11,913 bases of DNA from a virus. The DNA lies in the UHGV virus genome UHGV-1560991; one strand, given 5' to 3'. Positions 582-11,733 of this stretch are shown piece by piece (position 1 is the first letter of the stretch; each line of letters starts with the position of its first letter). The translations under genes were made by a program, and so were the position numbers. The notes below the pieces were generated by a model. It was given only the letters and a program-made list of their open reading frames with translations, did not search any database and was not told the DNA's origin.

Positions 582-878
582 TCACTCCTGTTCACTGGCC
601 TCTTTGGCCATCTTCAAATACTGTTCAGGGCAATGCGCCATAACGCGCTGAAACAGTTCCAGCGCCAGATTGCGTTGCCCCTCATTAAATGCCATTGCCA
701 TAGCGTCCATCGGTGAGATAGCGGAAAACACACGGCCTTTCTCCAGCACCGACCAGACAACGCGACGCCCCTGTTCACTGCTCATGACAAAGCGAATGTC
801 ATCAATTTCACGCTGCGCCATGTCACGTTGCTTACGGGCGTTTTCTTCTTTCAGTTGATCGTCTTCGTAATCTGTCAT
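582..878 (-). CDS. Hypothetical small phage protein (98 aa) between portal and scaffold-like gene
   Basis: ORF with a start that overlaps the portal stop (875/878) and a stop 2 nt before the next ATG, a tightly coupled operon arrangement. No family recognised. Confidence 0.55.
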   Translation of the reverse strand: MTDYEDDQLKEENARKQRDMAQREIDDIRFVMSSEQGRRVVWSVLEKGRVFSAISPMDAMAMAFNEGQRNLALELFQRVMAHCPEQYLKMAKEASEQE

Positions 879-2554
879 TGTGATTGCCCACCCTGACCAC
901 TAACTGCATTCGCCATAGCTGACAACACACTCGGATCCGAAGTTTTAGCTTCGCTTAGCGTCTTGGCCCCCTGTGCCGCCGCCATCCCCATCGCCATCAT
1001 TTGTTGCTGCTGTTGTTGCTGTGCCCGTTGCTGGCGAGCCTGCTCAACCTGTTCCTGCGGAACAATGACGGTTGGAGACACTCCGGACATATCAGCGAAT
1101 GCATCGATCGCCTGATCAACGTTGAGTTTGTCGAGAGCTTCTGGTTTCGCTTGCGCAAGTTGACCAATGAAGTTAACCGTGGACGCCAGACTGGACAGGC
1201 CGATAGACTTCTGCGCCTGAGCCATGACGGAAATGTATTCGACCTTCAGGGGCATGCCTTCCATCGCGTCAGGCGGTGGCGGCAGCATGTTTTTACGCAC
1301 CATCATCGAGAAAGCGCGGTCAATGAGAGGATTAAGACATTCGTCGTTCAGACGCTCCAGAACCGGCCCCAACATCAGAAGTTTTTCTTCTTTCATTTCG
1401 ATCACCGCTTCAACAGGCATCGAGCGGGTATTGATGTTCTGCAACATCATGAACAGATCGACAAAGTAGGCGCTGTTAATGATTTGACGAGTGTCCTGAA
1501 TGTCTGCCACCAAATCTGCTGTACTGGGGTTAACCAGATAAGCAGGCCTGAAGCCATCCTGACCAGTAATCTGATCGATATACGTGATGTCGCCAGGAAG
1601 AAGGGAGGCGCGCTGATTCTTGAGGGAAGTCGGAGCAACCATCGGCGGATTGGTGGCTTTATCAATCAACTGCGACTTGCGCTTCTGGAGAAGCTGCAAT
1701 GCCTTAACAGGTCCAAGCGCCAGCATACCCGGGCATGATGATCCATAAACATCTTCGCCGTTAACTTCCCAGCGCGGAGCCATAATTGGAAACTCATCGA
1801 ATCCGGACTCACGCAACAACTTGTCGTTATCGCCACCAACCTCGTAATAAACCGATTTGAATGGCTTGTTCTTGCTATCCAGCTTCGATGTATCGCGGTC
1901 AATGTTCGGGTAAACCGAATGCATCACTTCAATCCACTTCTCGTAGGTACCGCTTTCCCACATGCTTTTTACGGATTCGCTGACGTTATTTAGCCCGAAC
2001 TCCTGAACAAGCTGACGAACAGTCATAGAGAACTTGCGAAAACAGGTGTCCACACTGCCACGAGGTGAGTTAGCCAGGTAGTAACTGCCTATCGGGAATG
2101 GCATTGTGCGAATGATGTCCTCGTCATCCTCCAGCACTGCCATTGCACCAGTGCTGTATGTGCCGAGGCTTCCGTATAACTGCGGCAGCGACTGATAGAG
2201 ATTCGACTTATTGAACATATCGTTCATGCGGTTCTGCACCGCCTCAAGCCACAACTTAACAGGGCCATAATCCATCATTTCAGGATCTGGCGTAGCCAGG
2301 CGAAACCACGGACGCGCGGGGCTTGTGATGCCTGACATCATGCCACTAGCGAGAGTGCGCGCCGCCATAGTCCCGGTCGAATCAATAATGCGTGTATTGC
2401 GTCGATCGTTACGGTTGACCTCAGAAGTCAGAAAGCGGGAACCACGCGGGTTGATGTAATCACTCAACTCGCGCCAGTGCGGCTCGAACGACTGACGCTC
2501 GCTTTCAAGTTGTGCGAACTGTTTGTTCAATCGCTCTTTAGTTGTTTCCGCCAT
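875..2554 (-). CDS. Phage portal (head-to-tail connector) protein, T7/epsilon15 type
   Basis: 559-aa ORF. The N-terminus (ERLNKQFAQLESERQSFEPHWRELSDYI) and the Gln/Met/Ala-rich C-terminal tail (QQQQQQQMMAMGMAAAQ) resemble the T7 gp8 connector as I recall it. It lies downstream of the terminase genes. Family call is from memory, not a search. Confidence 0.8.
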   Translation of the reverse strand: MAETTKERLNKQFAQLESERQSFEPHWRELSDYINPRGSRFLTSEVNRNDRRNTRIIDSTGTMAARTLASGMMSGITSPARPWFRLATPDPEMMDYGPVKLWLEAVQNRMNDMFNKSNLYQSLPQLYGSLGTYSTGAMAVLEDDEDIIRTMPFPIGSYYLANSPRGSVDTCFRKFSMTVRQLVQEFGLNNVSESVKSMWESGTYEKWIEVMHSVYPNIDRDTSKLDSKNKPFKSVYYEVGGDNDKLLRESGFDEFPIMAPRWEVNGEDVYGSSCPGMLALGPVKALQLLQKRKSQLIDKATNPPMVAPTSLKNQRASLLPGDITYIDQITGQDGFRPAYLVNPSTADLVADIQDTRQIINSAYFVDLFMMLQNINTRSMPVEAVIEMKEEKLLMLGPVLERLNDECLNPLIDRAFSMMVRKNMLPPPPDAMEGMPLKVEYISVMAQAQKSIGLSSLASTVNFIGQLAQAKPEALDKLNVDQAIDAFADMSGVSPTVIVPQEQVEQARQQRAQQQQQQQMMAMGMAAAQGAKTLSEAKTSDPSVLSAMANAVSGQGGQSQ

Positions 2555-2568
2555 TTCAATGACTCCGG

Positions 2569-2775
2569 TTACTGACCAAGTAGCGTTTTACCGCTGGTAT
2601 TAGCGGTTGATGTGTCGCCATGAGAACCGGTAAGCAGCGTAGAACTACGACCAGCAGCAGCGCGACGGCGACGTGTTTCTTCGTCGCGGGCATCAACAAC
2701 GGCGGCATCCTGCTCCTGTGGTGCTGCCTGAACTTCTGGTGTTGCAGGCACTGATGGTGAGCTACCCATGCACAT
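2569..2775 (-). CDS. Hypothetical small protein (68 aa) immediately upstream of portal
   Basis: ORF ending 14 nt before the portal ATG. GGAG lies 9 nt upstream of its ATG. The Pro/Ala/Thr/Arg-rich translation looks more protein-like than the overlapping 79-aa frame (2556..2795). Weak call. Confidence 0.3.
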   Translation of the reverse strand: MCMGSSPSVPATPEVQAAPQEQDAAVVDARDEETRRRRAAAGRSSTLLTGSHGDTSTANTSGKTLLGQ

Positions 2776-3202
2776 ATCAATGACTCCGTACGCAATTAAA
2801 TTATTACCAATTTAACCACATATGATTTATTTATCGTAGATAGTTGACATTTACCGCACAAATTATTACCTTTTGGGTAACCAAAGAGTTCATTCCGGTT
2901 ACTAACCTGACTGGCTTGTCGTTAAATTGAACAGGTGGAGTGAGCTTTTATTTTGAGCAGTACGGCGTATGGCACATGCGCCGATAGCGGTCTGGATACG
3001 TTTAAGGGGCACCCTCCCTTGCTCGGGAAAACGAACCAGGTAGCCGGAATGTGCAAGTCGAGCGGTTTTATTCCGCGCACGGGGATTCACCATCCCGGCG
3101 ATTCGGTGTGACGCCTCGGAAGAGACGAGGGTACAACGATGAGAGCATTTATGGAGCCGCGACAAAGTGTGGCGCCTTAACAGGCTAAGTGCTCTCAGCG
3201 TT

Positions 3203-3279
3203 GTGGCATTAGCTCAGCTGGACAGAGCAACTGCCTTCTAAGCGGTTGGTCGCAGGTTCGAATCCTGCATGCCACGCCA
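3203..3279 (+). tRNA. tRNA-Arg (anticodon UCU), argU-like
   Basis: 77-nt cloverleaf read by hand: acceptor GTGGCAT/ATGCCAC, D-stem GCTC/GAGC, anticodon stem ACTGC/GCGGT (one G-U pair), loop CTTCTAA giving anticodon TCT, T-arm GCAGG-TTCGAAT-CCTGC, discriminator G, encoded CCA. Close to E. coli argU as I remember it. Confidence 0.9.
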
Positions 3280-3322
3280 GAATCACGCCTAAGGACCGTG
3301 ATGCCAGAAGTTCCAGGTGCTT

Positions 3323-3365
3323 GGCGGTGATGGTTTCCCTTGAAGGACTATCACCGCCCTTTTTA
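3323..3365 (+). terminator. Hairpin plus T-tract downstream of the tRNA (candidate terminator)
   Basis: 9-bp stem GGCGGTGAT / ATCACCGCC around a long loop, followed by CTTTTT. Confidence 0.35.
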
Positions 3366-3442
3366 CAGCAGGACGCCATTGCGATGACTTCATGCTGTAA
3401 ACCCGTACAGCCACGGAAGGCATAACTCATTGCTTCCAGTTC

Positions 3443-3466
3443 GCCCGGTTCGCCGGGCATTTTTTT
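3443..3466 (+). terminator. Rho-independent terminator-like hairpin
   Basis: GCCCGG-TTCG-CCGGGC (6-bp GC stem, tetraloop), then A and a run of 7 T, ending 11 nt before the ATG of the 3478 gene. Confidence 0.5.
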
Positions 3467-3477
3467 AAGGTGAGATT

Positions 3478-3858
3478 ATGAACGACCAGCAAATCGAAAA
3501 AGAAATCGTTGAGAAAGGTAAAACCGCTCCGCGAATCACCCCGCAGCACATCGAAGACGTGATTAAAAGCGAGCATTACTTTACTGCTTATGATGGACGA
3601 AATGGTGCCATTTCCAGCAACGAATATTGTGGCAGGGAAAAACCAGAAGAAGGCGATCGTGATTTATCACCATTGAAGTTGCTCACTTTCTGCGTACTGG
3701 TGCTGAAGAATGGCTTCACCGTCACCGGAGAGAGTTCCTGTGCAAGCCCGGAAAACTTTGATGCAGAAATTGGTCGGAAGATTGCCCGGCAGAATGCTGT
3801 AAACAAAATCTGGATGCTTGAAGGTTACTTGCTGAAGCAGAAGTTAAGCGAGCAATAA
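3478..3858 (+). CDS. Small plus-strand phage accessory protein (126 aa), possibly Gp49-like family
   Basis: Clean ORF with AAGGTGAG 5 nt upstream of the ATG. It is transcribed opposite to the flanking terminase and portal genes and is followed by a hairpin terminator. The family guess is a weak recollection. Confidence 0.6.
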   Translation: MNDQQIEKEIVEKGKTAPRITPQHIEDVIKSEHYFTAYDGRNGAISSNEYCGREKPEEGDRDLSPLKLLTFCVLVLKNGFTVTGESSCASPENFDAEIGRKIARQNAVNKIWMLEGYLLKQKLSEQ

Positions 3859-3860
3859 CA

Positions 3861-3875
3861 CCGTGACATGTCACA
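3861..3875. repeat. 15-bp element CCGTGACATGTCACA containing the perfect palindrome GTGACATGTCAC (copy 1)
   Basis: Exact 15-mer shared with 6312..6326. Lies immediately 3' of the 3478..3858 gene and is followed by GCCAGCC. Confidence 0.5.
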
Positions 3876-3878
3876 AAC

Positions 3879-3905
3879 AGCCAGCCTATGAGCTGGCTTT
3901 GTTTT
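3879..3905 (+). terminator. Hairpin terminator between the convergent 3478 gene (+) and terminase large subunit (-)
   Basis: Stem AGCCAGC / GCTGGCT (7 bp) with loop CTATGA, followed by TTGTTTT on the plus strand. Confidence 0.45.
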
Positions 3906-3948
3906 ATCCTCACCAGAGGATATCAACGACATTATCCCCACCAGAGGA

Positions 3949-5424
3949 TTAAGCATAGGGATCGTAATCTGTGATGGCCTTGCCTTGCTGGTTCTGCTGC
4001 CCGGGAATTCGCAGACGCTTCGACACAGGGAACGCAAACGTCAGCAGTAGCGCATCGCCTTTACCCGGCGAACGCCCAAGCCGCTCCTTGATATCTTCCT
4101 TCGGTTCAATAACGATTTTACCGTCCACTCGAACTTTGTACTCTGCCGCCGACAGGTCGTCTGCTGTTTCCTGGTCATCAAGCATGCCGCCCAGCCTCAG
4201 CCATGTCTTACATGAGTTGAACATCTCCCCACGCTTGTTGAGCATCTGCGGGTCAGTAGACGCGCCACCGAATGGAACAAGTTGCCATGTACGTCCCCAG
4301 CCATCACCGATTGACTTCAAACCGGTTCCGTAACCGAAGTCGATGAACACCGCGTCAGCCTGGTACTGGTCTTCAAAGTCAGCGATACGCTTCGCCATAA
4401 TCAGATCGTCGGTGGTCTTGTTGCCGGTCCACAGCACCTTACTGTGCAGCCCCTGCCGCAGGTATATCACCGCTTCATCAACACCGGAGTATGCAGGGTC
4501 AACGCCGATTATCACCGGAGCATGTGCCACCTGCGCAGCAGTTACCACCCGTTTCATTGCCTCGTCAGTAAGACCGGTAGGGATAAACTGCAATTCAGAT
4601 GCATCAGGGAATATGCCGCGCACACGGATTTTAACGAAGTCGCTGTCTTCCCCGTAGTCATCAACCCATTTCTGCAACTGCTGTTTGTTAGTGCCTTCCA
4701 CCGTCCGGCTGTCAATCTGCGCAGTTTTCCAGCGGTGTTTATATTTGCGGAAACATTCGCGGAAACGACCGGTATTACGCGTCGGGTTTCCGAACGCCAC
4801 CCAGATGATTTCGGTGTCTTCGTCCGTCAGCGCACCCTCTGCTACCTCCCACACCAGATCGGCAATGTTGGATGCTTCGTCGAATACCACGATGATGCGT
4901 TTGCGCTCGTTGTGTAGTCCAGCGAATGCCTCAGTGTTGTGCTCAGACCAAGGGATTGCGTCAGCTCGCCACCGCTTGTCGTGCCCAGGATCATTGCTGT
5001 ACATCGCGGTAGCGGTACAGGTAAACCAGTCTTTCGTGATAGCAAGGTTCGACCACTTGATAATTTCCGGCCAGGTCTTCGTTCGTAGCTGGTTGTCGGT
5101 GTTGGCGGTCACCACGACCTTACAATCCTCGCAAGTGGACATGCCCCAGTTGATCAACATTGAGATGAATGCTGATTTACCAATACCGTGACCCGAAGCA
5201 CGTGCCAGCATAAGCGGCTGATAGCGCGTCTCGGGATTCTGCAGGTGATCACGTATCTCTCGGAACGCATCGGCCTGCCACTGACGTGGGCCGGTAGCAT
5301 GTGCCAGTTCAGTCCCCTCTTCCCCCCAAGGGAACGCATAGAGGGCATAGCCAAGCGGATCGTGAGTGAACCCTGCAATATCCTCGATCAACTGCTCTTC
5401 AGGAGATAACGCTGTATTTGTCAC
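3949..5424 (-). CDS. Terminase large subunit
   Basis: 491-aa ORF with a Walker-A-like ARASGHGIGKS motif near the N-terminus, acidic motifs consistent with an ATPase plus nuclease domain, and a start overlapping the stop of the upstream small-subunit gene (5421/5424). Confidence 0.85.
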   Translation of the reverse strand: MTNTALSPEEQLIEDIAGFTHDPLGYALYAFPWGEEGTELAHATGPRQWQADAFREIRDHLQNPETRYQPLMLARASGHGIGKSAFISMLINWGMSTCEDCKVVVTANTDNQLRTKTWPEIIKWSNLAITKDWFTCTATAMYSNDPGHDKRWRADAIPWSEHNTEAFAGLHNERKRIIVVFDEASNIADLVWEVAEGALTDEDTEIIWVAFGNPTRNTGRFRECFRKYKHRWKTAQIDSRTVEGTNKQQLQKWVDDYGEDSDFVKIRVRGIFPDASELQFIPTGLTDEAMKRVVTAAQVAHAPVIIGVDPAYSGVDEAVIYLRQGLHSKVLWTGNKTTDDLIMAKRIADFEDQYQADAVFIDFGYGTGLKSIGDGWGRTWQLVPFGGASTDPQMLNKRGEMFNSCKTWLRLGGMLDDQETADDLSAAEYKVRVDGKIVIEPKEDIKERLGRSPGKGDALLLTFAFPVSKRLRIPGQQNQQGKAITDYDPYA

Positions 5425-6017
5425 TGATTACCATCCTGACGTTCTTTGAGTCGCTTCCTGGCTGCTGCTATGCGATCAGCAATTGTCACATTCACATTAA
5501 CATCCAGACGTTCTTTGAACGCGTTGACATCAACATGCTTACCAATCAGCTCAAGGTTCTTCACCTTGTCAGGCCATTTAATTTTTTTGAGGATTGTCTC
5601 TATCGAATCCTCGTTCATGTTCATGATGGTCGATGACAGATCAAAGCCACTAAGCGTAGTGCGCCAGATTTTCGGCCACTCACGGATTGGTTTAAGGCTC
5701 CCATCGTCGTTGAGGATGTCGATCACGTCCATCTGGTCGATCTCCACCAGGCGCATGAGAACGTAATCAGCACTGACGCGCATTCGTTTGTTGCGCTCCT
5801 CCATCAACTCGGCAATCCGTTTTTGAATGCGTTCATCGCGCATCATGACACTGGCTTTAACTGCCGCTGTATTTGGGGAGAATCCTGCGTTAATCGCTGC
5901 CTGAGTCTGGTTCTCAGGCGTTTTGATGTATGACTGGCAATAAGCCTCCTGCATTGCTGTGAGCGGCTTAAATTGCGTTGATTTGCGTTTATAGGTTTTA
6001 GGTTCAGCAGGCATCAT
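5421..6017 (-). CDS. Terminase small subunit
   Basis: ORF directly upstream of and overlapping the large subunit, with a basic N-terminal region (MMPAEPKTYKRKSTQFKPLTAMQEAYCQSY) typical of terminase small subunits. Start set at the internal Met pair (6017/6014) because the longer track ORF (to 6095) would run through a terminator hairpin at 6061..6086. Confidence 0.75.
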   Translation of the reverse strand: MMPAEPKTYKRKSTQFKPLTAMQEAYCQSYIKTPENQTQAAINAGFSPNTAAVKASVMMRDERIQKRIAELMEERNKRMRVSADYVLMRLVEIDQMDVIDILNDDGSLKPIREWPKIWRTTLSGFDLSSTIMNMNEDSIETILKKIKWPDKVKNLELIGKHVDVNAFKERLDVNVNVTIADRIAAARKRLKERQDGNQ

Positions 6018-6060
6018 AACCACCGTGGTAATAGTTACCGTTGTGGTGATAGTACCATGC

Positions 6061-6086
6061 AAAATAAAGCCGCCATAGTTGGCGGC
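6061..6086 (-). terminator. Rho-independent terminator-like hairpin upstream of the packaging operon
   Basis: On the minus strand: GCCGCCA-ACTA-TGGCGGC (7-bp stem) followed by TTTATTTT, beginning 6 nt after the stop of the 6092..6325 gene. Confidence 0.45.
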
Positions 6087-6091
6087 AGTAT

Positions 6092-6325
6092 TCAAAGTCC
6101 ATCAAATTCATCGTAAAAACTCTCGTCAAGATACCCTTCCCATTTACCGCGAATGAAAATTACATCCTCGCCGCAAGGGTGCTGACTGTCGATAACTATA
6201 TCCCTCCTGGCGCAACCATACTTATGCATGAGAAATTTAACCTCTTTCGGAAAATTTGCTGAGTTATCTCTCATATCTTCAAGGTCGTAGCGTATTTTTG
6301 GCATAACACATCCGTGACATGTCAC
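6092..6325 (-). CDS. Hypothetical small protein (77 aa as in ORF track; alternative start MPKIRYD at 6304 gives 70 aa)
   Basis: ORF between the 113-aa gene and the terminator. No family recognised. The 6325 start lies inside a perfect 12-bp palindrome, so the internal Met may be the true start. Confidence 0.5.
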   Translation of the reverse strand: MTCHGCVMPKIRYDLEDMRDNSANFPKEVKFLMHKYGCARRDIVIDSQHPCGEDVIFIRGKWEGYLDESFYDEFDGL

Positions 6326-6326
6326 A
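6312..6326. repeat. 15-bp element CCGTGACATGTCACA containing the perfect palindrome GTGACATGTCAC (copy 2)
   Basis: Exact 15-mer shared with 3861..3875. Lies at the 3' end of the 113-aa gene and the 5' end of the 77-aa gene. Both copies are preceded by ATAACAC and followed within about 30 bp by GCCAGCC. Confidence 0.5.
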
Positions 6327-6663
6327 CTATTAATTTCGTTTCATGCCAGCCTTTGGTCACCCAGCATTGCGAGTCACCATTACACGGGCATGAATTCACA
6401 GGAACTCTCTCGCCGCACTTACCGCAACGTTTTCTGCTGATCGATTTTATACGCCCGCGCACGCGTGCATCATCCTGGCGGATCAGTAACGCTATATACT
6501 CACCAAATTCGTAAGGCGCACGCCCGGGGCGACGTGTGGCACAGTTACGCTCCAGCATTTCAATTTCCTGAGCATCAAGCACAATCTCCAGCTTACGTAC
6601 ACCGGATTCAGCTTGTCTGGCTCTCTGAGCGGCTTTGCGCTCTGCTGCTGATTTAGCCATCAA
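6322..6663 (-). CDS. Hypothetical protein with an N-terminal ribbon-helix-helix-like region and a C-terminal Cys-rich (zinc-ribbon-like) region
   Basis: The N-terminal segment (ERKAAQRARQAESGVRKLEIVLDAQEIEMLERNCATRR) resembles the small LexA-regulated CopG/RHH-type protein YbfE as I recall it. The C-terminus carries CGKCGERVPVNSCPCNGDSQC. Overlaps the upstream gene by about 11 nt. Confidence 0.5.
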   Translation of the reverse strand: MMAKSAAERKAAQRARQAESGVRKLEIVLDAQEIEMLERNCATRRPGRAPYEFGEYIALLIRQDDARVRGRIKSISRKRCGKCGERVPVNSCPCNGDSQCWVTKGWHETKLIV

Positions 6664-6934
6664 TATTTACCTTTATCGCGAACACCTTTACCGGTTTATC
6701 GCCGAAGTGCGGATGTGTGATTGTCTTGATTTCATATCCGTCATACGGAACATCAATTCTGCGACTGAAATCGTCGCGCTTCGGATATCCCTTTGTGATA
6801 ACCAGGCGGCCATACTCGCGGAACATAATTCGCTTATTCCAGTAGTCATTACACAGGCGATACTCTTCCGTTTTCTGCCCGCGAATCATGGCATCGAAGT
6901 ATTCACCTTTGACGGCAAGTTGCAGGTTAGCCAC
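6653..6934 (-). CDS. ASCH-domain protein (about 94 aa from a GTG start)
   Basis: Contains the ASCH-type GxKxxExR signature (IRGQKTEEYRL). Proposed GTG start at 6934..6932 has AGGAGG 6 nt upstream and removes most of the overlap with the upstream gene. The ORF track's ATG at 7015 would overlap that gene by about 88 nt. Confidence 0.6.
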   Translation of the reverse strand: MANLQLAVKGEYFDAMIRGQKTEEYRLCNDYWNKRIMFREYGRLVITKGYPKRDDFSRRIDVPYDGYEIKTITHPHFGDKPVKVFAIKVNIDG

Positions 6935-7577
6935 GGTTAACCTCCTGCGGCGGTTCCGGTAGCGGCATCCAGTGAGTTGCTTGCTCAATACCATTACCCG
7001 GCTTAATCGTTGCATCTCCGCGCCGAAAGGTGCTTCCGGTATAGCGTGCGGAGCATATTAGCGGTTCAACCAGAGAGCTATCGAAATTCACCGAAATAAG
7101 CACGTTCTGGCCCTTTTCCGGCATTCGCTCACTACAGCTTATCCAACCATCCGGAGTTACCGGATAGTTGCCGGGTTCTTTAATGTGCAAGCGAGGCTCA
7201 CCATCTTTTGGCTCAGGCCACTGGCGCTCCATGTTGATCTTCAATTTATCTTCCATAGCAGCGGTAATTTCAGCATCGCTGATGCCAGCACGGCGCTGTG
7301 CATCCCACAACAGAAACTGCATATCAGCCCACTCGCTAAGATCGTCTGGTTCGGCTGCGGCTTCCAGTGCCTCTTTTGAGAGATGTTTCAGCGGACCAAT
7401 GGGGCCAACGCAGCCAAATGTGGAGTCAGACCATTTGGCATGCTCGTGGCGAATCAGTTCGCGTTCCAGTGATGCCAGTGCAATTCGTGCCAGTTCCATT
7501 TGTTCGCCACGAGTAAGCCCGTTTTCAAGCGGATTTTTAATGAACAATTCAATACGTTCTTTGGTAATAGTGGTCAT
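6927..7577 (-). CDS. DUF550/DUF551-type phage protein (N-terminal region possibly of the dATP/dGTP pyrophosphohydrolase-associated family)
   Basis: 216-aa ORF with AAGGA upstream of the ATG. The C-terminal THWMPLPEPP motif is the characteristic DUF551 signature. The N-terminal half is assigned to DUF550 by recollection only. Confidence 0.7.
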   Translation of the reverse strand: MTTITKERIELFIKNPLENGLTRGEQMELARIALASLERELIRHEHAKWSDSTFGCVGPIGPLKHLSKEALEAAAEPDDLSEWADMQFLLWDAQRRAGISDAEITAAMEDKLKINMERQWPEPKDGEPRLHIKEPGNYPVTPDGWISCSERMPEKGQNVLISVNFDSSLVEPLICSARYTGSTFRRGDATIKPGNGIEQATHWMPLPEPPQEVNRG

Positions 7578-7587
7578 TTGTTAGTCC

Positions 7588-8343
7588 TTAAACTGCTAGT
7601 TGCAATTGCATTTCAAAGCGGTCGCGTTGTTCACAATACGCAAGAGAACCAGGGCTATTGTGTGCCTCAATCCGTTCTACCATTAATGCTGCGCGTGTCT
7701 CTTTACTTGCAGGTGCATAAGCCCCAGACCAGGCTTTATCAATACCGATGTTTCGAGCGACGTTCGTACTATCTGCGCTGGCTAAGGGTAATTTTGTGAA
7801 TATCAGCGGATTTAACATGCGCAATCCATGTAGTTTCGTAACCGGCTGACCATGCCCATCAACAATGTGACGAATCAGGTCTTTCATTCTGGCTACCGCA
7901 AGAGTTGGGCGCTTTACGTCATAGTCGCCACAACTACCGATAGCCACTCGCGGAAACTCATTGCACAAATGAATAAATCGCGCGTCACTTTCATTCATGT
8001 GCCACACTGGAACGCCAGCTAGTTTTCCGTGAGGCCACTCATTCAGAAGCGCATCATTTTCCTCCTCTCCGCCATCAATAATATCCGGGATAATGGCAAA
8101 ATCGAATCCTGGGTGATTCTTCCAGCGAGCAACAAACTCGTAGTAATCGCTCCAGTCGATTTTGTTTTTGCCAGCTGCTTTCCAGGCGGTGAATGCACCG
8201 TTGTCCAGCGCGAACGACTGACAGTATTCAGCCGCGAGATTGATCTGGCCTGAATGCGCAAAACTGATAAACGCATGTCGCCCTTTCCATGCTCTCATTG
8301 CGCACGTATCAGGAGTAATAGGCCCACCGTGGTAGTGAATCAT
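7588..8343 (-). CDS. tRNA-guanine transglycosylase (TGT) superfamily protein, DpdA-like (candidate DNA 7-deazaguanine transglycosylase)
   Basis: By-eye alignment to E. coli Tgt motifs as I remember them: LDNGAF vs TDSGGFQ, FAIIPDIID vs IVMIFDECT, AIGSCGDY vs AVGGLAVGE, LHGLRML vs LMGVGKP, ASADSTNVARN vs FDCVMPTRNARN (nucleophile Asp region). No C-terminal CxCxxC...H zinc motif. Start placed at MIHYHGG (8343), which has AAGGAGAG upstream and sits 1 nt after the Ea22-like stop. The track's longer ORF starts at 8376. Confidence 0.55.
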   Translation of the reverse strand: MIHYHGGPITPDTCAMRAWKGRHAFISFAHSGQINLAAEYCQSFALDNGAFTAWKAAGKNKIDWSDYYEFVARWKNHPGFDFAIIPDIIDGGEEENDALLNEWPHGKLAGVPVWHMNESDARFIHLCNEFPRVAIGSCGDYDVKRPTLAVARMKDLIRHIVDGHGQPVTKLHGLRMLNPLIFTKLPLASADSTNVARNIGIDKAWSGAYAPASKETRAALMVERIEAHNSPGSLAYCEQRDRFEMQLQLAV

Positions 8344-8344
8344 C

Positions 8345-8896
8345 TCACTCTCCTTTGATGCGAATGCCTGTTGCAATGCTGTTTATGATGCTGTCAGTGC
8401 ATGGGGTAGAAAGCTGGGCATCTCCAGCAATTCTCATGACCTCAACATCTGCATATCGAATACCGAGGTGTATCAGACCGGCTATACCTGACTTAAGCCG
8501 AGCATTTTCCATAAACAGATCCTTTGCACGCTGTTTTTCTGCCTCAAGCTCAACGCGCAACTTCCCTACCGTTAACGCAATATCCTCGTTCTCTTGGTCG
8601 CGGCGTTTGATGTATTGCTGGTTTCTTTCCCGTTCATCCAGCAGTGCCAGCACGGTAGCCGGATTGGCTGCGGCGATGAATTCAGCATTGGCCTGCTGTT
8701 CTATTTGGAAATCTTCATCGAAACCGCTTTCAGGATGCGCTCCTTCAATTCTGCAAATGGGAATATATCCAGCAGCCTCGCGATGAATTAGCGCATCATC
8801 ACCATCAAATCGGCCCTCTCCATATTCGAGCGACCACTCGCCACACGTTGCTTTTTCTGCCTTAGCACGCAGTGCCTGATAATCAATCTTGCTCAC
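8345..8896 (-). CDS. Ead/Ea22-like family protein
   Basis: The N-terminus MSKIDYQALRAKAEKATCGEWSL is the characteristic Ea22-like opening, followed by a coiled-coil-like central region. Start overlaps the upstream stop (8893/8896). Confidence 0.75.
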   Translation of the reverse strand: MSKIDYQALRAKAEKATCGEWSLEYGEGRFDGDDALIHREAAGYIPICRIEGAHPESGFDEDFQIEQQANAEFIAAANPATVLALLDERERNQQYIKRRDQENEDIALTVGKLRVELEAEKQRAKDLFMENARLKSGIAGLIHLGIRYADVEVMRIAGDAQLSTPCTDSIINSIATGIRIKGE

Positions 8897-9588
8897 TGGA
8901 TGACTCCTTTACGAAGCTGTTCAGCGATATCTTCGAGAACGCCATCAGAGAATGAGCGGTCAAAATCGCCTTCCGGCGCATTAGCCATAAACTCAGTAGA
9001 GGTAAGAATCATCCGGGCAATATCAGCGGCGTTCTTCGCAGTATCATCAATAAAACCAGCTTCCCAGGCAGCCAGCATTCTGTTCGCCACAAAGTAAGCG
9101 CCCTCCTTGCGTGCTTCAGTCTTCACTTCAGCCAGGAAATCATCGGTGGCTGGGTGTTCTGTCTGGCTATGCATTACCCATTCAGATAAGTACTCGAAGC
9201 AACGGCGAAACTCCTGCCAATCACTGCACATGTTTAGGTTTCCGCCTTCACACTCGAACTGGTAATTCTCTAAACGGTCTGCAAACGCTCTGCCATTCTC
9301 GATGGCACCAAGTGGAGCTTCAGACTTCAGCCCAGCATTCTCCGCCGCCAACGCCGAAAACTTCTCGTGTGCCAACTTAACAGCCGCATCAGCCTGCTTA
9401 ATTGACTCAATCGCTTTCTGGTGGTCTTCGGACAGCGCATTAGCACGCACCAGTTGCACTTCCAGTTGCGTTGCCAAATCGCTGATCAGCTTTGCCACAC
9501 TGCGCATATCAACGGCACCACATTCAGCTTTCAGTTCCGAAGCCATCTCATGCCCGGCGGCAACTAACTCTTTGATATTACTTTCCAT
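8893..9588 (-). CDS. Hypothetical phage protein (231 aa) with an N-terminal coiled-coil-like region
   Basis: Long clean ORF, translationally coupled to the Ea22-like gene. No family recognised. Confidence 0.65.
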   Translation of the reverse strand: MESNIKELVAAGHEMASELKAECGAVDMRSVAKLISDLATQLEVQLVRANALSEDHQKAIESIKQADAAVKLAHEKFSALAAENAGLKSEAPLGAIENGRAFADRLENYQFECEGGNLNMCSDWQEFRRCFEYLSEWVMHSQTEHPATDDFLAEVKTEARKEGAYFVANRMLAAWEAGFIDDTAKNAADIARMILTSTEFMANAPEGDFDRSFSDGVLEDIAEQLRKGVIQ

Positions 9589-9649
9589 CTTTACCCTCGC
9601 TTATCCACATAACTTATTGATTACATTGATAACTAAAAAGATCGTCGAT

Positions 9650-9994
9650 TCAGAACTCTTCGATGTTCCAGCCACCACCTGCTTTCTTTGGTTTAACCGT
9701 TACCCCGATGATTCGGAACGGATACTGATCTGCGGCGACTTTGGTTTTCACTCTGGCGTCGTCGGTCCAGAAACCTTTCACTTCGTGCAGTTCCATCTCG
9801 CCGGTGGCGAGCATCACAGCAAAATCGGGCGTATAGAACGTGTTGTCAGCTAACCGAAGCTTGATACCCTCAAATCGATACCAGACGATTTCTCCTGCAC
9901 GTTTACGCAGCTCAAGGTGCTGGCAATACGCAGATTCTGTTTTGTTCATCTGGCCTGTTTTGAGTCGACCAAGAGCCTGTATCTGTTTTCTCAT
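9650..9994 (-). CDS. DUF1064-family protein (small PD-(D/E)XK-like phage protein)
   Basis: 114-aa ORF with YTPDF...ELHEVKG spacing reminiscent of a D...E-x-K nuclease-like core. This family is common in lambdoid nin-type regions. GAGGGA lies upstream of the ATG. Confidence 0.75.
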   Translation of the reverse strand: MRKQIQALGRLKTGQMNKTESAYCQHLELRKRAGEIVWYRFEGIKLRLADNTFYTPDFAVMLATGEMELHEVKGFWTDDARVKTKVAADQYPFRIIGVTVKPKKAGGGWNIEEF

Positions 9995-10011
9995 GATTTC
10001 CCTCTGAGGTA

Positions 10012-10040
10012 ATTAAAAACCACATAAGACATGAAATCAA
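10012..10040 (-). promoter_or_regulatory. Candidate sigma70-type promoter for the DUF1064 operon
   Basis: On the minus strand: TTGATT, a 17-nt spacer, then TTTAAT, about 17 nt upstream of the DUF1064 start. A short GCGC-GATA-GCGC hairpin plus T7 run lies downstream of the P-like gene in the same gap. Confidence 0.3.
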
Positions 10041-10111
10041 TAGAAATTAGAACATTTTATTACCTAAAAGGTAATCATGTAGGCGTAAAAAAATGCGCTA
10101 TCGCGCTGGTA

Positions 10112-10912
10112 TTACTTGATAAATCCTGCCGCCTTTCCCCGCCTGTATTCCTCCATCAGCCACTGCGCCGGTGTTATTCCCCCCAGGGTGGCGGCGTTAG
10201 GCATGCACCCGAAACTTCGCCCTGGCGGGTGGTAAACGTCTCTCCCTGTGTCCGGAGGCGTACTCATGGGTTCTGGCTTTGCCTGTATGCTGATCACCGG
10301 ATCGGGTATCTGCTGTCCGGAAGCCACCTTTTTCGCCCAATCATCGAGCAGCCTGCGCGCGTGTTTCTCAACCTCAATCTCGCTAAGCTGGCGCTGATAC
10401 ATTGCACGGCGGGTGTCACATACAACCCAGTACATAACCGGATGCCGCCACGGGAATCTTTCGGGACCACCAGGATATAAACTTTTTTCCTTGCTGTACC
10501 GGTGAAACTCCGCCATCACATCGTCAATGGTGACGCCAAGAACCATCTTGCTGTCTTTACACCACTTGATGAATTGCCCTGGCGACGGCCAGAACGGAGA
10601 TTCACTGGCGCGGGCGTGGCGCATACCAGCAGAAACCTGTTCACGGGTTCGGATCCCCCCTTCGGCAAACGCAGCAATCCACTGCTGTTTTGCAGCAGCT
10701 TCCTGCTCTGGCGTCTTCAGGTTGGTTACCACTGCCGCTGGAAACAGTTGTTTCAGCTGTTTGAAAAGGGCATCAACAAGCCTCTCTGCTGACATGTTCA
10801 CCACGTTGTCATTGTTGGTGTACTGATGCTCATAACCTGACATGCGAGAAAGGGCTTCTCCGTCACGGTTTTGTATCGCGGTAAAAACGTTGTTCACAAG
10901 AAATCCTCCCAT
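10112..10912 (-). CDS. Replication protein P-like (DnaB helicase loader, lambda P family)
   Basis: Collinear similarity to lambda P as I recall it: GIRTREQVSAGMRHARASESPFWPSPGQFIKWC vs GITTMEQVNAGMRVARRQNRPFLPSPGQFVAWC, plus an earlier LFPA vs TFPA match. Alternative GTG start at 10897 has GGAGGA 6 nt upstream and forms a GTGA overlap with the O-like stop. Confidence 0.85.
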   Translation of the reverse strand: MGGFLVNNVFTAIQNRDGEALSRMSGYEHQYTNNDNVVNMSAERLVDALFKQLKQLFPAAVVTNLKTPEQEAAAKQQWIAAFAEGGIRTREQVSAGMRHARASESPFWPSPGQFIKWCKDSKMVLGVTIDDVMAEFHRYSKEKSLYPGGPERFPWRHPVMYWVVCDTRRAMYQRQLSEIEVEKHARRLLDDWAKKVASGQQIPDPVISIQAKPEPMSTPPDTGRDVYHPPGRSFGCMPNAATLGGITPAQWLMEEYRRGKAAGFIK

Positions 10913-11733
10913 GCTTCAGGGCTGTTCCAGTGCGGAACGTTGTTATCAGGTAATGTTGATTGCTTCTGTCTGCTAATCTGCAGCCGCCTTGCCAGCTTCT
11001 GCTCCCACTGTGCCTGATGGTATGCCTTACCCTCAGCCATCCAGTAAATTCTGAACTCTGCAAGTTCCTGTGCCGTTGGCAGACTGTCCAGGTAGATCCC
11101 CTGCAATGAGCTTTTCCGAAGAAAGTCATCTGATGGCTGCCATTGTTCATGCATGACAAATTTGCCTAATTGCCCTGGCCCACCAGGAGGAACAAAGTTA
11201 TTCATCACGGCGTTGTTTGCGCCGGGGTCATGAGGCACAGAATCCCCGGTTTTTGTCCTGCTCTCCCTCTCTTGGTTAAATGACTGGTTATATGACTGGT
11301 TCTGGATCCCGTTTTTGGGATCATTCAACATCCCGTTTTTGGGATCATTCAACATCCCGTTTTTGGGATCATTCAACATCTCGTTTTTGGGTATATTCCC
11401 GTTTTCGGGAACATTACCGTTTTCGGGTTCATTACACCCATCTAGGTTGCCTTTAATGTTCCCTTTTTTGGTTATATTAAGAGAGAAAACCCGCACTCTT
11501 TTCGTCGCTCCCTTTCTCTCTCCGGTATCTGAAATAAGCCCCATTTTCATGAGCGATATAAGCCCGGCCTGTACGGTTTTTTTATTCAGGCAAGTGTCTT
11601 TAACGAGGCGTTCTATGCTGGGGTAGCAGAGGTTATATTCATCGGCTCTGTCAGCCATCGAGAGCAGTATGAGCTTTAATGACGAGCTACCTGGATCTGT
11701 CTCCCAGGCCCAATCTGTTGCATGTCTGCTCAT
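10894..11733 (-). CDS. Replication initiator O-like protein (N-terminal HTH DNA-binding domain, internal iteron-encoded repeats)
   Basis: 279-aa ORF immediately upstream of the P-like gene. The coding sequence contains tandem iteron-like DNA repeats that translate to PKNGMLND three times. The N-terminal region looks like a helix-turn-helix domain. Confidence 0.8.
   Translation of the reverse strand: MSRHATDWAWETDPGSSSLKLILLSMADRADEYNLCYPSIERLVKDTCLNKKTVQAGLISLMKMGLISDTGERKGATKRVRVFSLNITKKGNIKGNLDGCNEPENGNVPENGNIPKNEMLNDPKNGMLNDPKNGMLNDPKNGIQNQSYNQSFNQERESRTKTGDSVPHDPGANNAVMNNFVPPGGPGQLGKFVMHEQWQPSDDFLRKSSLQGIYLDSLPTAQELAEFRIYWMAEGKAYHQAQWEQKLARRLQISRQKQSTLPDNNVPHWNSPEAWEDFL
11303..11435. repeat. 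Iteron array (putative phage origin of replication) inside the O-like gene
   Basis: Two exact 24-bp tandem units CATCCCGTTTTTGGGATCATTCAA (11329..11352, 11353..11376), a near-copy ending at 11328 and a degenerate fourth unit at 11377..11400, then two CCGTTTTCGGG units about 19 bp apart. Each unit has TCCC...GGGA dyad symmetry, like the lambda ori iteron TCCCTCAAAACGAGGGA. Confidence 0.75.

Follow-up and report, generated by a model that had tools for sequence, protein, structure and literature searches.

A covarying structured RNA upstream of tRNA-Arg(UCU) in the plus-strand island between the terminase and portal genes of Uetakevirus, with relatives in other enterobacterial phages

A plus-strand island between the terminase and portal genes

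The window analyzed here is the whole 11,913-nucleotide (nt) stretch of DNA from virus genome UHGV-1560991, in which the region of interest shows ~97% identity to Escherichia phage phiV10 and its relatives (genus Uetakevirus, epsilon15-like podoviruses). Coding sense flips between the gene for the large terminase subunit (TerL) and the gp3-like open reading frame (ORF) that opens the portal/head operon, which leaves positions 2776-3948 as an island on the plus strand. In order, the island holds a putative operator-overlapped promoter, a hairpin module (X1), an RNA of ~240 nt, a tRNA-Arg(UCU) gene, a hairpin, terminator T1, two further hairpins, terminator T2, a small cargo ORF and terminator T3. 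The ~240-nt element is the subject of this report: it is a structured RNA of a new family, absent from Rfam 15, and is most likely a kind of phage early-leader or antitermination RNA.

A first-pass annotation of the window had described an island splitting TerL from gp3 and the portal gene in the opposite orientation, and had listed the tRNA, three hairpin terminators and an oppositely oriented small gene. These items are present where it placed them, with both flanks on the minus strand and the island on the plus strand, but ~2884-3202 was left unexplained although it holds the most conserved element of the island. The annotation had also regarded the arrangement as uncommon. TerL and gp3/portal with an intervening island were found in phiV10, O157 typing phages 9 and 10, epsilon15, SPN1S, 66FD, Tyrion, BUCT554, BUCT711 and ST11-OXA245phi3.2, and a plus-strand island occupies this position in every Uetakevirus examined. 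Because the island is present in all Uetakeviruses compared, the arrangement is ancestral, and the island is a genus-wide plus-strand transcription unit rather than a recent insert. Across these phages just the ORF after T2 varies, and the island itself is universal. Taken by themselves, the tRNA, terminators and small gene are nothing unusual and were partly annotated before (a tRNA, a terminator and a gp66-like gene appear in some relatives' records), and the island as such was already known.

Fold of the structured RNA

The RNA was delimited by nhmmer searches, alignments, RNAalifold predictions and pair counts. All of the following lie on the plus strand.

~2963-3202, plus: conserved structured RNA of ~240 nt, five helices and a pseudoknot
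2963-2983, plus: helix P1
2988-2995 with 3036-3046, plus: helix P2, with a variable distal stem in addition
3046-3057, plus: invariant GGAAUGUGCAAG
3057-3059 with 3097-3099, plus: helix P3
3082-3096, plus: P3b hairpin
3088-3091 with 3105-3108, plus: pseudoknot, CACC of the P3b loop with GGUG
3114-3130, plus: helix P4
3133-3151 with 3186-3204, plus: helix P5, which encloses a variable insert

The 135 copies that were extracted gave 99 distinct cores and 29 clusters at 92% identity, and the 29 representatives make up alignment A3, on which the structure was written out. Pairing was compared with controls in which the pairing partners were slid by 1-3 columns and with 500 shuffles. For a set of 14 sequences, RNAalifold gave 31 pairs, and compensatory changes are present in 13 of these. 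In A3, 97.3% of the cells in the 32 core pairs are paired, compared with 31-44% in the slid controls, and both-side changes occur in 13 of the 32 pairs, compared with 2-7 in those controls; none of the 500 shuffles reached the observed measures. One pseudoknot pair changes from C:G to A:U in cdtI-type sequences. P5, considered with its insert excised, has 19 pairs that are paired in 91% of cells (30-63% in controls), with compensatory changes in 9 of the 19; its central 7 base pairs (bp) are nearly invariant and do not covary, and the insert ranges from ~40 to 300 nt.

In a tally of pair types, G-U pairs account for ~12% of the paired cells of the core, and since these would be A-C mismatches on the opposite strand, the strand that forms the RNA is the plus strand. 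Reading frames are not conserved, with none open in more than 6 of the 29 representatives, and core lengths of 163-186 nt across relatives mean that length differences are not confined to multiples of three. Compensatory changes above controls, strand-specific G-U pairs and the lack of a conserved ORF are together the general marks of a structured noncoding RNA, and many unpaired nucleotides of the RNA are invariant as well. The covariance model built from A3 (R1) matches the window at 2950-3153 with 162 bits (E ~1e-47) and finds one copy per locus. Rfam 15 at its gathering thresholds returned the tRNA only, and at E<=10 it returned nothing in 2884-3202, a result that covers its put-like, C4, ROOL, GOLLD, Y RNA, riboswitch and ribozyme families.

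Some variation was observed around this common fold. The P5 inserts of four loci, L008 (1720a-02), L013 (SPN1S), L017 (Kp4866-6) and L009 (BUCT554), contain one or two T-arm-like hairpins with loops GGUUCAAUUCC and GUUCGAUUC; ARAGORN finds no tRNA there, and the hairpins could be tRNA remnants or T-loop tertiary modules. A decayed tRNA as the origin of the core itself was considered and rejected, as ARAGORN finds no tRNA in the core. In another subset, L005 (66FD), L016 (mEp390), L105, L048, L046 and L073, another conserved 3' domain, CAGCCAUUCACGCUAAGCAU...GGUGCUUAGCGGGACUGGAAGAGUUACCACUUGGAGACGGUCC..., takes the place of P5, ~150 nt after P4. A weak second match of R1 (11 bits) lies at 2180-2327 in mEp390.

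Distribution and novelty of the RNA

A distant DNA search with only the intergenic region as query returned matches to ~245 nt just upstream of the tRNA. Matches to the RNA were found in P1, P7, D6, SJ46, cdtI, mEp390 and Stx2c and Stx2a prophages, as well as in Klebsiella, Enterobacter and "Stenotrophomonas" phages, and nearly all are unannotated. The RNA occurs in 1,840 of 5,426 complete Escherichia coli genomes, with 1,920 occurrences on chromosomes and 554 on plasmids, and in at least 120 IMG/VR contigs. Among the matches listed, 0 of 40 in E. coli have an annotated feature beneath them, and none of those in RefSeq and phage records is annotated as an RNA. With a strict motif and a set of one genome per species, the RNA was recovered from Kosakonia, Citrobacter, Klebsiella, Enterobacter, Kluyvera, Phytobacter, Buttiauxella and others; these matches are confined to Enterobacterales save for one 1.7-kilobase (kb) contig of a metagenome-assembled genome labelled Bacillota. 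A literature search by exact sequence strings and by topic, mostly outside subscription journals, found no description of the RNA.

Judged from these sequence comparisons, the RNA is a discrete, horizontally exchanged module. It represents a large RNA family with strong covariation support, present in about one third of complete E. coli genomes, in Stx- and cdt-converting prophages and in P1.

Genomic positions of the RNA

Among 140 oriented loci, 60 have a gene for a cI-type repressor (helix-turn-helix and Peptidase_S24 domains) directly upstream of the RNA and in the same orientation. Three such lambdoid loci were scanned, and an intrinsic terminator follows cI in cdtI and 733R5; none was reported in the mEp390 scan. 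Each has a strong sigma-70 promoter before the RNA (TTGACA-16-CATAAT in cdtI, TTGACA-18-TACATT in mEp390 and TTGACC-17-TACATT in 733R5), and helix P1 begins ~47-52 nt after the -10 of this OL-flanked promoter. The promoter of the RNA is surrounded, in five different immunity types, by the operator motifs also present in the cI-cro region, which identifies that promoter as the PL/OL equivalent and the RNA as the early-left leader. Downstream genes in lambdoid loci include DUF2303/YfdQ, YfbR-like and Ea22-like genes, xis, int and unknowns, and no N-like gene was seen downstream of the RNA in these loci; for instance, in Stx2a_WGPS2 the operon extends from the RNA as far as xis and int, with no N-like gene in view. 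In lambda-like prophages without an N-like gene at its usual place, the RNA starts some 40-50 nt past the promoter that comes after cI. The RNA occupies the slot of lambda nutL-N and HK022 putL, and sits at the front of operator-controlled early units.

In P1-like phages the RNA lies between tRNA3 (CAU anticodon) and ban, 9 nt after the tRNA in P1, within a C1-controlled operon; altogether it is found <=100 nt downstream of a tRNA(CAU) in 18 loci. The tRNA-Arg(UCU) follows the RNA in 29 of the 140 loci. No tRNA is adjacent in 93 of the 140, and many tRNA-less loci retain GUGGUGAAU and a D-arm-like hairpin at the tRNA spot. Two further prophage loci show another layout: L037 has copies at 6651-6813 and 7456-7618, as two RNA and reverse-gene units in tandem, while L089 has one at 7620-7776 whose core is directly followed by a terminator-like hairpin. 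Each copy in these loci is followed by a reverse-oriented gene of ~160 amino acids (aa), ahead of plus-strand early genes, with a hairpin resembling a bidirectional terminator between the RNA and those genes.

Epsilon15 shows what a Uetakevirus island without the RNA looks like. In its segment L006 2497-2580, aligned with window 2963-3360, the tRNA, the RNA core and the T1 5' arm are all missing, and the junction lies within a 13-nt string, TTCCCTTGATGCT, that SPN1S-type phages carry both in the apical loop of P2 and in the loop of T1. Epsilon15 is a deletion derivative, and the sequence at the junction suggests that the deletion arose by short-homology recombination. Epsilon15 is viable without the RNA and the tRNA, and both are therefore dispensable for viability.

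Control region, terminators and cargo gene

The remaining features of the island and its flanking genes, with the basis for each in parentheses, are the following.

2798-2808, no strand assigned: direct-repeat copy 1, AAATTATTACC, an operator-like half-site in the divergent control region (repeat search)
2860-2870, no strand assigned: direct-repeat copy 2 (repeat search)
2844-2872, plus: putative promoter of the plus-strand unit, with -35 TTGACA at 2844-2849, a 17-nt spacer and -10 TACCTT at 2867-2872 (conservation)
2866-2880, no strand assigned: palindrome TTACC-N5-GGTAA overlapping the -10 (sequence comparison)
2884-2955, plus: degenerate X1 module, a P5-like leader hairpin (upstream alignment)
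3203-3279, plus: tRNA-Arg, anticodon tct, with encoded CCA (ARAGORN; sole tRNA in the window)
3282-3302, plus: hairpin AUCACG...CGUGAU just 3' of the tRNA (27 tRNA-bearing loci aligned, compensatory variants)
3323-3364, plus: terminator T1, a 14-bp stem then CUUUUU (terminator scan, hairpin 3323-3358; the stem covaries between loci)
3365-3398 and 3415-3437, plus: two conserved hairpins between T1 and T2 (alignment)
3443-3466, plus: terminator T2, GCCCGG-UUCG-CCGGGC then A and U7 (terminator scan, hairpin 3443-3458)
3467-3858, plus: cargo ribosome-binding site (RBS) AAGGUGA and ORF 3478-3858, 126 aa, of the N4 gp49 / Sf6 gp66 family (Pfam, PHROG)
3879-3907, plus: terminator T3, the end of the plus-strand unit, facing the end of TerL (terminator scan, hairpin 3879-3898)
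875-2554, minus: portal/head-tail adaptor (ORF list, comparison with PHROG and records)
2569-2775, minus: gp3-like ORF, 68 aa, opening the portal/head operon at the left island edge (PHROG 831, E 9e-35)
3949-5424, minus: TerL, right island edge (PHROG 2, E 5.5e-52)
5421-6095, minus: TerS (ORF list)

The gp3-like ORF is the homologue of phiV10p06 and of epsilon15 gp3. The divergent control region upstream of it (2776-2880) is kept across Uetakevirus loci, which makes plausible the earlier suggestion that the portal operon has a separate promoter. The -35 and the spacing of the putative plus-strand promoter are also kept in most of these loci (TTGACA-17-TACCYT, ~90 nt upstream of P1), and the palindrome homologous to the one over its -10 is annotated by the depositors of epsilon15 as a repressor-binding site (L006 2282-2298). 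We infer a Uetakevirus plus-strand promoter from this conservation together with the epsilon15 annotation. As the putative promoter overlaps the annotated repressor palindrome, the unit would be expressed on induction rather than in the lysogen.

X1 lies between the promoter and P1 and is well preserved in many other Uetakeviruses (ACAAC..GAAAGCGCAC...GUGCGCUUCC..GGUGUG); the epsilon15 record labels this hairpin as an 'RNaseIII' site. Within the degenerate X1 of the window, CAUUCCGGUUAC (2891-2902) is complementary over 12 bp, including one G-U pair, to GUAGCCGGAAUG at 3040-3051, a conserved stretch that covers the 3' strand of P2 together with the invariant junction, and a single-sequence fold pairs the two.

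A terminator scan of 2500-4200 found five sites, four of them on the plus strand, compared with 2.0 +/- 1.5 in shuffled sequence; three are strong, and these are the three hairpin terminators of the first-pass annotation. The two hairpins between T1 and T2 (ACAGCA...UGCUGU and GGAAGG...CUUCC) covary between loci and could be a separate small RNA (sRNA) or an attenuator of the cargo gene; Rfam at E<=10 gives just weak RyhB/sRNA-like matches in 3390-3466, far below threshold. T2 directly adjoins the cargo RBS, with the ORF beginning 12 nt past the T2 U-tract, an abutment shared by the aligned loci that carry the tRNA, and T2 also precedes the cargo ORF in three tRNA-less Uetakeviruses that were scanned (Tyrion, BUCT554 and 66FD). 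Scans of the window, Tyrion and BUCT554 found nothing resembling a promoter in the interval from the RNA to the cargo ORF. The cargo protein matches Pfam PF13876 (Phage_gp49_66) with 118.5 bits (cut-off 27, E 1.8e-34), belongs to PHROG 322 (unknown function) and is the equivalent of phiV10p03. T3 is annotated as a rho-independent terminator in phiV10.

Possible functions of the RNA

These positions and sequence features present five potential explanations, which are given below in the order of how well they survive the comparisons. The first two both lend themselves to direct tests, whether in P1, in phiV10 or in a lysogen of the cdtI type.

1. The RNA is a cis-acting leader that lets RNA polymerase read through terminators. 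We tentatively place this explanation first, while holding it with limited confidence. The RNA would fold during transcription at the front of the early, repressor-controlled transcript and would act in cis, either unaided or together with Nus factors of the host, on the polymerase that is transcribing it. Polymerase made termination-resistant in this way would read through T1 and T2 into the promoter-less cargo gene of Uetakevirus and through the early-left operon of lambdoid phages, a function like that of HK022 put or N/nutL but carried out by an unrelated and larger RNA; an RNase P cut at the tRNA 5' end would define the 3' end of the RNA. Support comes from the covarying fold and from the position of the RNA behind a repressor gene and its early promoter, with no N-like gene seen downstream. 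A need for read-through is indicated by the Uetakevirus cargo ORF, which lies behind two intrinsic terminators with no promoter-like site found between, and by the bidirectional-terminator-like hairpins that separate the RNA from the plus-strand early genes in L089 and L037. If correct, this explanation may account for early-left control in N-less lambdoid prophages and would add a further kind of RNA-only antiterminator.

Several observations weigh against read-through. In lambdoid loci, neither nhmmer nor R1 found a second copy of the RNA close to PR, in contrast to HK022 with its putL and putR, and no strong plus-strand intrinsic terminators were convincingly predicted in lambdoid early-left operons. 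A consensus promoter scan of 2500-4200 returned no site, and the putative -10 of the window matches at only 3 of 6 positions. Epsilon15, a viable phage, keeps T2 and the cargo gene without the RNA, and in P1 the RNA lies ~1 kb into its operon. With a tRNA 3 nt downstream, RNase P cleavage would be expected to sever the RNA from the nascent transcript. Lastly, the size of the RNA and its many invariant unpaired bases fit a trans-acting RNA too.

2. The RNA is a stable trans-acting noncoding RNA that is cut from the early transcript and binds a conserved host component early in lytic growth. We consider such a processed RNA possible, and nearly as likely as the cis-acting leader. RNase P could cut at the tRNA or tRNA-like hairpin next to the RNA, and RNase III or E could cleave the long helices of X1 and P5. 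Candidate targets are the translation/tRNA machinery, an RNase or a tRNA-targeting defence nuclease. The RNA would then be comparable to ROOL and GOLLD, as an RNA that phages carry and that is linked to tRNAs. The RNA does adjoin tRNAs (3 nt before tRNA-Arg in its 29 loci, within 100 nt after tRNA(CAU) in its 18), tRNA-less variants retain GUGGUGAAU with the D-arm-like hairpin, and T-arm-like hairpins occur in some P5 inserts. Long, near-perfect helices flank the core, one of them being X1 with its RNase III label from the epsilon15 depositors. The RNA also moves as a discrete module among unrelated phage types and positions, has a terminator-like hairpin directly after its core in L089 and two copies in L037, and contains many invariant unpaired nucleotides. 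The missing PR copy, the lack of lambdoid terminators, the T2 and cargo gene of epsilon15 and the abutting tRNA, all noted above, favor this explanation as well. Left unexplained by it, however, are the consistent, operon-oriented placement of the RNA right after an early promoter and the layout in which a terminator precedes the cargo; furthermore, no partner protein co-occurs with the RNA, and the neighboring genes vary. If it acts in trans, the RNA would be an enterobacterial counterpart, in genetically tractable organisms, of the unexplained tRNA-linked phage RNAs.

A more far-reaching proposal is that the RNA defines a new class of trans-acting, tRNA-linked phage RNA, which RNase P and RNase III would excise from the immediate-early transcript and which would then work against some conserved host system, whether as decoy, as inhibitor or as catalyst. 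We judge this to be rather unlikely, and hold the same view of the targets that it would imply, namely tRNA-cleaving or tRNA-sensing defence, translation or the RNA-decay machinery. Were the RNA such a trans-acting counter-defence, an RNA-based early counter-defence would be carried by P1, N-less lambdoid prophages and epsilon15-like phages.

3. The RNA is a cis-acting leader of another kind, such as a riboswitch-like ligand or tRNA sensor, a shield against Rho or RNase E, or a platform for tRNA yield or mRNA stability. Its position in a 5' leader, its pseudoknot and its invariant junction bases are as in aptamers, a very long untranslated leader would otherwise invite Rho, and the linkage to tRNAs would suit a role of this kind. 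The core, on the other hand, bears no expression platform, there is no U-run after P5 and T1 lies beyond the tRNA; moreover, the downstream genes are unrelated across contexts, and the 93 of 140 loci without an adjacent tRNA fit poorly. These leaders are therefore regarded as doubtful, slightly more so than the new class proposed above.

4. The island is a recent moron-type acquisition that split the terminase-portal operon, bringing an AGA tRNA and a lysogen-expressed gene. A moron-type insertion into this operon was the interpretation of the first-pass annotation, and some of the data are in its spirit: an alignment of 27 tRNA-bearing loci shows conservation up to the T2 U-tract and then different ORFs, mostly sharing the RBS AAGGUGA, so that in close relatives the swap of the cargo ORF begins precisely behind T2; the gp49/66-family gene is common to Sf6, IME10 and others at 97% identity; and AGA is frequent in part of the genome. 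The comparative data have nevertheless largely refuted it, and it now seems very improbable. The position and orientation of the island are conserved genus-wide, including in epsilon15, SPN1S, Tyrion and Klebsiella and Enterobacter members. The cargo ORF lacks its own promoter and stands directly behind a terminator, although T3 is present, and the promoter of the island overlaps the annotated repressor site. Nor does the tRNA appear to serve the late genes, since AGA accounts for 0 of the 1,440 codons in the five morphogenesis genes of the window (gp5, portal, gp3, TerL and TerS, 582-6095).

5. The conserved stretch is a small protein gene or a DNA site (a recombination or packaging signal) and not an RNA gene; short hypothetical ORFs are annotated over the RNA in BUCT554, Tyrion, mEp390 and KpF5 and the window has an 87-aa minus-strand ORF, but with no frame conserved, cores of 163-186 nt, abundant compensatory changes and strand-specific G-U pairs, this explanation is scarcely credible.

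Comparison with known phage and host RNAs

In position the RNA is closest to putL and nutL, and in lifestyle to the tRNA-linked phage RNAs. Like HK022 put, it is a structured RNA at the start of a repressor-controlled early transcript in N-less lambdoid phages, just downstream of PL and oriented with the operon. The put element is described as ~70 nt with two stem-loops (PMC9378689). The RNA described here is ~240 nt or more, with five helices and a pseudoknot, and is found on the PL side only, in a single copy per locus, whereas put occurs at both PL and PR. Homology to put was rejected: the put regions were read directly, and across the complete HK022 genome nhmmer gave no match and R1 none above noise.

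Lambda N/nutL (boxA-boxB) likewise has this position in the PL leader. Membership in the N/nut system was rejected, as no N-like gene was seen downstream and only a partial boxA-like string is present, inside a paired helix. The boxA of bacterial rrn operons is UGCUCUUUAACAA (UGCUCUUU...). In many loci the P5 3' strand and its tail, GUGCUCUUUCC-GUUGUGG, resemble rrn boxA followed by a GU-rich, boxC-like run, but the variant in the window (GUGCUCUCAGC-GUUGUGG, 3186-3204) matches boxA less well, and the boxA-like bases are here paired in the covarying P5 helix. We treat this resemblance in sequence as a lead only.

ROOL and GOLLD are ornate noncoding RNAs of phages and prophages, often beside tRNA genes and of unknown function. 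The RNA shares with them an ornate fold, carriage by phages and proximity to tRNA genes, but it has no Rfam match at E<=10, is much smaller and was found here only in Enterobacterales. P1/P7 c4 and P4 CI are antisense or immunity RNAs of ~77 nt, phage structured RNAs that are cut from longer early transcripts with RNase P defining an end. In contrast to these, the RNA here has no match to the Rfam C4 model at E<=10, and no target complementarity was identified for it. The ileZ-argN-argO cluster of Stx phages, downstream of PR', also places a rare-codon tRNA-Arg(UCU) in a phage transcript that passes terminators, but it belongs to a late, Q-dependent operon and has no associated structured RNA of the family found here.

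The arginine tRNA and a hypothetical gene opposite to it

The tRNA-Arg(UCU) called by the first-pass annotation is genuine. It scores 67.5 bits with the Rfam tRNA model RF00005 (gathering score 29), and A20, C35, G73 and the encoded CCA can be read from its sequence. It starts 3 nt past the GUU found after helix P5, and the base of P5 extends over its first two nucleotides. Its nearest tRNA matches in Stx phages are argO-type tRNAs. AGA occurs 22 times in nine genes at 6322-11733 (~12 per 1,000 codons), and the two halves of the window thus differ sharply in rare-arginine codon usage.

On the opposite strand, the phiV10 record has an 83-aa hypothetical gene, PhiV10p04, at the equivalent of window 3209-3460 (minus; L001 3710-3961). 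It runs opposite the tRNA-Arg, T1 and T2, and most likely represents a spurious gene call.

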